Shown here in pieces: positions 16,437 through 16,637 of a stretch of DNA of 64,000 nt. The DNA is taken from the sequence record PP925840.1; one strand, written 5' to 3'. Every line of letters begins with the position of its first letter. The first letter of the stretch is position 1. The notes beneath the pieces were generated by a model, which saw only the letters and a list, made by a program, of their open reading frames with translations, made no database searches and had not been told where the DNA came from. Position numbers and translations under genes: made by a program. Origin of the DNA: Escherichia phage SholemSchwarzbard.

Positions 16437-16637
16437 ATGGTACAAAAATTAATGGCACTTGTTAATGCCATAAAAGGTAATAAAAAACGTATAGCTTTTA
16501 CTATTTCTGCTATGGTAGGAATTTTACTCTGGAACTTTATTCTATCACCTGTTGCAATTGCGCATGGTATTAATATTCCAGTAGTTACTCTTGATACATT
16601 TGTAGATTTAGCATTTGCTTTAGTTGGGTTGATTTAA
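16437..16637 (+). CDS. small membrane protein, 66 aa, plus-strand gene
   Basis: AAGGAGG SD 4 nt before ATG; two hydrophobic segments; occupies intergenic space between 56 and 61; tail-to-tail 4-nt overlap with gene 61. Confidence 0.7.
   Translation: MVQKLMALVNAIKGNKKRIAFTISAMVGILLWNFILSPVAIAHGINIPVVTLDTFVDLAFALVGLI

Follow-up and report, generated by a model that had tools for sequence, protein, structure and literature searches.

The window analysed here, a stretch of 64,000 nucleotides from Escherichia phage SholemSchwarzbard (PP925840.1), belongs to a Tequatrovirus and is 98.7% identical to Shigella phage Sf22 across 1.9 kb. The feature under study is an open reading frame on the plus strand, placed between the genes encoding dCTPase (gene 56) and DNA primase (gene 61), both of which are found on the minus strand (Table 1). 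It begins with an ATG, and its 66 codons translate into MVQKLMALVNAIKGNKKRIAFTISAMVGILLWNFILSPVAIAHGINIPVVTLDTFVDLAFALVGLI. The ORF is divergent with respect to gene 56 and convergent with gene 61, with which it shares a tail-to-tail overlap of 4 nt, both stop codons lying within the same TTAA. A preliminary description of this DNA had presented the ORF as the only credible plus-strand gene in a region of minus-strand transcription, preceded by a near-perfect Shine-Dalgarno (SD) sequence and overlapping gene 61 by 4 nt. All three statements were borne out: the motif AAGGAGG stands 4 nt before the ATG, the overlap with gene 61 is of the stated length and, in the near-identical phage PinkRuby, only one of the 95 coding sequences annotated in the first 50 kb is found on the plus strand, this being the very same gene.

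Table 1. Coordinates of the features discussed in the text. Positions are those of the window, except in the last row, where they are preceded by the name of the locus.
Feature	Position	Strand	Remarks
Gene 56 (dCTPase)	15847..16365	-	divergent neighbour of dam.1
Predicted divergent middle promoter for gene 56	16400..16426	-	MotA box TATTGCTTTA 16426..16417, 11-bp spacer, -10 TATAAT 16405..16400
Predicted gp55-type late promoter AATAAATA	16407..16414	+	TATAAATA consensus with the common A(-13) variant
Shine-Dalgarno AAGGAGG	16426..16432	+	4 nt (ACAT), then ATG
dam.1 coding sequence (66 aa plus stop)	16437..16637	+	small hydrophobic protein, phrog_2024
Weak terminator-like hairpin plus T-run	16452..16471	-	inside the 5' coding region of dam.1
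Shared stop codons (TTAA)	16634-16637		4-nt overlap of dam.1 and gene 61
Gene 61 (DNA primase, 342 aa)	16634..17662	-	convergent neighbour of dam.1
ATAAATA copies	15470-15476, 43640-43646, 56956-56962, 63726-63732, 63739-63745	-	
ATAAATA copies	16408-16414, 18029-18035, 47475-47481, 61263-61269	+	
Loci holding the ~96-aa relatives	L031 8001-9368; L033 681-2580; L028; L032		

The plus-strand ORF is dam.1, a gene already annotated in hundreds of T4-like genomes, and it is not new. In the T4T record (HM137666), gene dam.1 (T4Tp032, ADJ39749.1) is annotated at 17724..17924(+), and an exact-sequence look-up of the T4 protein led to a UniRef entry named "Uncharacterized protein dam.1". In other records it goes by RB32ORF030w ("similar to RB69ORF029w") or by Sf22_gp204 ("predicted membrane protein"), although "hypothetical protein" is its usual label. 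The window protein matches phrog_2024, a PHROG family of unknown function, along residues 2-66 (E 1.4e-31). In T4 itself the ORF is intact at 17738..17938(+) of NC_000866.4 and AF158101.6, and 64 of its 66 residues (97%) are those of the window protein; neither of these two records has a feature annotated at that position. dam.1 is likewise left unannotated in KJ477685, a T4 record with few annotations, while most newer Tequatrovirus records include it. Literature searches based on dam.1, on the RB69 and RB32 ORF names, and on T4 small-ORF or antisense studies returned no paper on dam.1.

It had also been stated in the preliminary description that this interval holds dam and gene 69 in T4 and that neither is present here. 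The absence of dam stands, for no Dam homologue was found anywhere in the window, and the 899 bp of T4 that carry dam (16826-17724) are replaced by 20 bp (16406-16425). Gene 69 (now segF), however, is located on the far side of gene 56. The notion that the ORF has taken the place of dam has to be abandoned, since T4 holds both dam and the 97% identical dam.1 ORF. What stands between gene 56 and dam.1 varies from genus to genus: dam in T4, a MazG-like gene in KLB31 (Kanagawavirus), an unnamed 101-aa gene in CkP1 (Karamvirus), and nothing in the window.

The window protein was found by tblastn in 698 phage records, with a coverage of at least 80% in 691 of them, and an ORF carried by so many records must be more than a product of chance. 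The comparison of the window with T4 (five synonymous and two non-synonymous changes) yielded a dN/dS of 0.12, and values of 0.29 within Gaprivervirus and of 0.25-0.38 between genera, where synonymous sites are saturated, were obtained; the Tequatrovirus-Karamvirus pairs, with a dN/dS of about 1 and saturated substitutions, were left out as evidence. In three genus sets, the variable sites were distributed over the three codon positions as 7/3/13, 6/0/13 and 9/2/10, the third position being the one most often changed. Judging from these substitution patterns, dam.1 is under purifying selection. Conservation as an ORF in related phages, on which the preliminary description had made its gene call depend, was therefore encountered, and dam.1 is almost certainly a real, translated gene.

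More distant orthologues were identified at 48-55% identity in Mosigvirus ST0 and Gaprivervirus DK-13, and at 27-31% identity in Karamvirus CkP1, Gelderlandvirus STP4-a, Kanagawavirus KLB31 and Klebsiella phage Roth78. All six keep the length (59-69 aa), the SD sequence and the family motif, which can be written as W-N-[FY]-x3-P-x5-G-x3-P-x4-[DE] and corresponds in the window protein to W32, N33, F34, P38, G44, P48 and D53. Among 17 diverse members, all of which match phrog_2024, W32, P38 and G44 are invariant. The GGAG core of the SD sequence was present in the nine genera examined, and GGAGG in eight of them.

At least nine enterobacterial genera of the Tevenvirinae keep the gene in this place and on this strand. 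Next to gene 61, dam.1 occupies the same slot and strand in Tequatro-, Mosig-, Gapriver-, Karam-, Gelderland-, Kanagawa- and Jiaoda-like phages, as well as in a metagenomic T4-like contig; it is always opposite to its neighbours, points towards gene 61 and lies on the side of gene 56. A homing endonuclease gene separates dam.1 from gene 61 in DK-13 (L007 2872-3621), which abolishes the overlap while the ORF is kept. A homing endonuclease gene is also inserted beside gene 61 in STP4-a (L019 3181-3813). In Roth78 the overlap of the ORF with gene 61 is missing, and between the two lies a GC-rich inverted repeat, AAGGGGCTTTGGCCCCT (L020 ~2190-2215), which resembles a bidirectional terminator. Roskildevirus, Gualtarvirus, Krischvirus and Biquartavirus lack the gene; in them, same-strand genes directly follow gene 61, and because of this absence dam.1 would be dispensable for a T4-type life cycle. 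The phrog_2024 family must be small, given that an exhaustive profile search among 1.84 billion representatives gave only 11 clusters. From its distribution, dam.1 is an accessory gene restricted to one large clade of the enterobacterial Tevenvirinae.

A T4 late promoter consists of the 8-bp box TATAAATA at positions -13 to -6, with no need for a -35 element, and all early and middle transcripts of T4 have the polarity opposite to that of this ORF (PMC2988020, PMC1524935). Upstream of dam.1, the sequence AATAAATA matches TATAAATA in seven of eight positions and has A at -13, a replacement for T that occurs in 9 of 50 listed T4 late promoters (PMC2988020). The transcript predicted from this box would start at about 16420 and would have a 17-nt leader that includes the SD sequence. 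The ATAAATA core lies 13-22 nt before the ATG in seven of nine genera, its carriers including, besides the window, T4 (GATAAATA), ST0, DK-13, VR26, Roth78 and KLB31, and the two others (CkP1 and STP4-a) have ATTAAATA instead. The sequences flanking the core are unrelated and cannot be aligned between genera, and the core occurs on both sides of the junction of the dam indel.

On both strands of the 64-kb window ATAAATA was observed 9 times, compared with 41.9 +/- 7.2 in shuffled sequences, a depletion of about 4.7-fold, which suggests that stray late promoters are selected against in the early region. The minus-strand copies, five out of five, are found just upstream of an SD sequence plus ATG, including those of soc and of the lysozyme gene e. 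Since the heptamer is avoided and its minus-strand copies all precede an SD sequence and an ATG, it is very unlikely that the copy of dam.1 is idle, and the gene is probably expressed late, as far as its promoter allows one to predict. No credible ORF was found behind the three remaining plus-strand copies, which may be late antisense promoters. The box at 18029-18035 reads GATAAATA and is followed at once by an ATG without an SD sequence, antisense to the 61.2 region.

The short interval before dam.1 also contains, on the minus strand, a predicted middle promoter located about 35 nt upstream of gene 56, with a -10 hexamer that ends 34 nt before the ATG of this gene; the plus-strand sequence TAAAGCAATA is the reverse complement of the consensus MotA box TATTGCTTTA. 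The late box of dam.1 falls inside the spacer of this middle promoter, on the opposite strand. The gene 56 middle promoter and the dam.1 late promoter and leader are arranged back-to-back, using the same 27 bp on opposite strands. A partial match to the late-promoter consensus had been pointed out upstream of the ORF in the preliminary description. A predicted late box, AATAAATA, does exist there, but the element that was noted, TATATAAAGC, which overlaps it, is mostly explained by the minus-strand MotA box; as a late promoter it was rejected, as it is not conserved in T4 and transcription would start within the SD sequence. The minus-strand hairpin within dam.1, with 8 pairs followed by TAATTTTTGT and situated about 165 nt past the end of gene 61, was likewise discarded as a part of the dam.1 system, since its conservation does not extend beyond Tequatrovirus.

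No plus-strand terminator was detected within 1.1 kb downstream of dam.1, and for this reason its late RNA would proceed antisense into gene 61. A T4 dRNA-seq preprint reports 150 transcription start sites, 22 of them antisense (bioRxiv 10.1101/2024.04.04.588121).

The window protein has a GRAVY value of 1.25, with hydrophobic stretches at residues ~19-42 and ~47-66. Charged residues are found on the N-terminal side (K4, K13, K16, K17 and R18) and on the C-terminal side (D53 and D57). An AlphaFold2 model built with 16 sequences (mean pLDDT 77) shows helices at residues 2-12, 16-42 and 52-63, joined by a conserved HG-x3-P turn, the second hydrophobic segment being modelled as a 12-residue helix. 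The two hydrophobic segments proposed in the preliminary description are, therefore, both present, but the second is too short for a clear second span, and in the light of the model a second transmembrane segment is doubtful. We read the predicted structure as that of a single-span protein in an N-in orientation, whose short C-terminal helix would lie at, or dip into, the periplasmic leaflet. The product of dam.1 is very probably a membrane protein.

Pfam, NCBIfam, PADLOC and PDB, queried with the window protein or with the profile of its family, yielded no match, and Foldseek against BFVD retrieved only family members, everything else having E > 0.1. Regarding the features by which holins are recognized, Dam.1 is indeed small and is predicted to have one transmembrane domain or more. 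In contrast, linkage to an endolysin or a lysis cassette was not found, its neighbours being the dCTPase and primase genes, although the lysis genes of T4 are scattered, which makes such linkage a weak criterion for this phage. The protein ends in ...AFALVGLI, with no charged residue beyond D57, and the charged tail typical of holins is absent.

A word-indexed search with broad alignment revealed relatives of about 96 aa in Raoultella, Cronobacter and metagenomic prophage-like contigs. These longer forms match phrog_2024 (E 5e-11), and their genes are found close to the end of siphophage-like regions, a few genes past a lysozyme gene. Two unknown genes (~105 and ~200 aa) come before them, and in some contigs a gene with a RelA_SpoT domain (PDC-S33-like according to PADLOC) follows 16 nt on, and then a DUF2188 gene (PDC-S16). 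This neighbourhood may be a defence or toxin-antitoxin-like island.

The ~96-aa form provided a lead to holins, as it scored 20.3 bits (E 8.5e-4) against PF11351 (GTA_holin_3TM, "Holin of 3TMs, for gene-transfer release"), a model with a gathering threshold of 24.8 bits. Two other family members scored 15.3 and 13.6 bits in the same register of the model, and the window protein itself gave no match to it. By tblastn, the ~96-aa form reaches a 143-aa "holin" encoded beside a lysozyme gene in MW202665.1, the relatives of which are annotated as PF11351-type holins and in several cases adjoin endolysin or amidase genes. Nine holins of this type were used for comparison, and an endolysin, amidase or peptidoglycan-binding gene adjoins four of them (D93, ParKuw1, 1.247.A and MW202665). 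When the Dam.1 family, long forms included, was aligned with these nine holins by hhalign, a probability of 78% (E 1.9e-5) was obtained over 45 columns that comprise a helix, a turn and a helix; with the T4-like members only, the probability was 47-49% (E 1.8e-4). The maximum score of 450 column-shuffled decoys was 19.1, compared with 32.9 for the real alignment, and the family HMM ranked holin ORFs 1-4 among 749 ORF segments. The nine-holin HMM does not retrieve dam.1 among the window ORFs, and holins do not come out on top with an HMM built only from the T4-like short forms; the link goes through intermediates and through profile-profile scores of membrane segments, a kind of comparison in which false positives easily arise. 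On these scores Dam.1 is not a member of PF11351, and we give slightly less than even odds to its helix-turn-helix core being a remote relative of the PF11351 membrane hairpin. The weakest family member, P0085, was considered as a possible case within a lysis cassette in a siphophage-like contig and was discarded, because its neighbour matches a minor tail protein and not an endolysin.

These observations could be integrated, with a probability of roughly 0.55 for the whole, by assuming that dam.1 is a real accessory gene encoding a late membrane protein that is related to the holin core and has an accessory role connected with lysis. According to this model, RNA polymerase carrying gp55 would transcribe dam.1 only late, from AATAAATA at 16407-16414 and starting near 16420, and the transcript would run on antisense into gene 61. 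The product, of ~7 kDa, would insert into the inner membrane, leaving its basic N-terminus on the cytoplasmic side. The long helix (residues ~16-42) would bear the W-N-[FY]...P...G motif and would be followed by the Pro-rich turn and the conserved acidic residue, with the short C-terminal hydrophobic helix placed at the periplasmic face or re-entering the membrane. The core of Dam.1 would represent the PF11351 ("GTA 3-TM") hairpin stripped of its N-terminal domain and of its charged C-tail, and the protein would act in the membrane as infection ends, as an accessory factor that modulates permeabilization or the timing of lysis.

The proposal of a membrane role at the end of infection derives from the tentative holin-core relationship. 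Taken by itself, a lysis-related role (that of an accessory modulator, and not of an autonomous holin) is a possibility to which only a minor share of the probability can be assigned on the basis of the sequence, and it is about equally likely as a membrane role unrelated to lysis. We know of no lysis or r mutation mapped at the dam.1 locus. A more specific version, in which Dam.1 would be a stripped-down holin-core protein within the lysis and lysis-inhibition system of T4, co-assembling with the T holin, gating it or contributing to late depolarization, is rather unlikely; if true, it would add an unrecognized part to this much-studied system, overlooked because the reference annotation lacks dam.1.

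A late membrane protein with no connection to lysis would be devoted to superinfection exclusion, anti-defence, the tethering of assembly or the binding of a host membrane protein, and its resemblance to holins would be convergent or ancestral only. Such a role has a similarly minor share of the probability. In its favour, the ~96-aa relatives are found at the accessory end of prophage-like regions, after two unknown genes, and the RelA_SpoT and DUF2188 neighbours that follow them in some cases are typical of defence or moron islands and not of canonical lysis cassettes. In addition, dam.1 is accessory and patchily distributed, its product lacks the charged C-tail, and the lysis genetics of T4 appears complete without it. 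However, nothing positive favours any single one of these roles, PADLOC was empty for the protein itself, the T4 exclusion proteins Imm and Sp are made early and not late, and the sole lead from sequence points to holins. In the opposite direction, one could propose that Dam.1 is an autonomous second holin or a pinholin, as would be suggested by the name "Holin" given in UniProt to the OE5505 orthologue, by the weak matches of family members to holin PHROGs and to PF11351, and by the small size, the predicted late promoter and the first helix rich in Gly, Ala, Ser and Thr in some orthologues. T4 defective in t does not lyse, though, and because t mutants fail to do so dam.1 cannot be an independent holin; moreover, the charged C-terminal tail is absent, the second helix has only ~12 residues, no endolysin gene is adjacent, and the label on the OE5505 orthologue lacks support in the records examined. 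An autonomous holin is, in our view, extremely improbable.

Only marginally better placed, and still highly improbable, is the possibility that the functional unit is not the protein but the late promoter together with an RNA antisense to gene 61 (and to early 61-56 read-through), which would silence early messages, the ORF being secondary. With no plus-strand terminator found in the 1.1 kb downstream, the transcript must run antisense through gene 61; several genera conserve the convergent overlap of 4 nt; and there are sites in T4 known to be transcribed from both strands, at different times (PMC2988020). Yet the selection acting at the amino-acid level and the conservation of the SD sequence, start, length and motifs in orthologues with 30-55% identity require translation, and the hairpin of Roth78 and the insert of DK-13 indicate that in these two phages the antisense cover of gene 61 is not maintained while the ORF is kept. 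An antisense function could coexist with that of the protein. The preferred reading, an accessory gene for a late membrane protein with a tentative relation to the holin core, is the one retained here.

As a sequence feature, the gene is ordinary, being the orthologue of a catalogued but uncharacterized one. The value of the analysis lies in flagging an omission in the reference annotation, on account of which genome-wide T4 studies built on NC_000866/AF158101 would miss dam.1, and in two predictions that can be tested: that of a plus-strand start used late, for which the conserved late promoter and the lone plus-strand position predict a late 5' end near T4 17722, and the relationship with the holin core, which, although tentative, represents the first testable functional hypothesis for the phrog_2024 family.

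When compared with known systems, the closest counterparts of the gene are dam.1 of T4T, RB32ORF030w, RB69ORF029w and Sf22_gp204, which are its orthologues, with 97-100% identity within Tequatrovirus, where position, strand, SD sequence and overlap with gene 61 are all as in the window. With respect to T4T dam.1 nothing material differs, except that dam is absent here, so that dam.1 directly adjoins gene 56. The T4-type late genes soc and e, also contained in the window, are preceded by the promoter core just as dam.1 is, with an equally short distance to the SD sequence and the ATG. In contrast to other late genes driven by TATAAATA, dam.1 is the only one on the plus strand of the early region, has A at -13, and its promoter is a predicted one. 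T4 encodes other small membrane proteins, such as Imm, Ac, RI and the spanin PseT.3, which have in common with the dam.1 product their small size, membrane location and accessory character. No similarity of Dam.1 to any annotated family was detected, and imm and sp, which are early or middle genes of T4, are found on the other strand. Compared with the PF11351 holins, Dam.1 has less than half the length, and only columns 78-135 of the 156 of the profile align; it lacks the N-terminal domain of ~75 aa, with its invariant AGWRP region, and the charged MRSxDK tail, falls below the Pfam threshold and has no adjoining endolysin gene. What it would share with the PF11351 / phrog_3427 holins (MW202665.1 UOF80177.1; Vibrio phage 282E43-1 P0039) is the helix-turn-helix core, which aligns along the pattern G-W...[WY]-x-F-[IV]-x-x-P ... 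P-x-[LI]-[DE] ... L-G.
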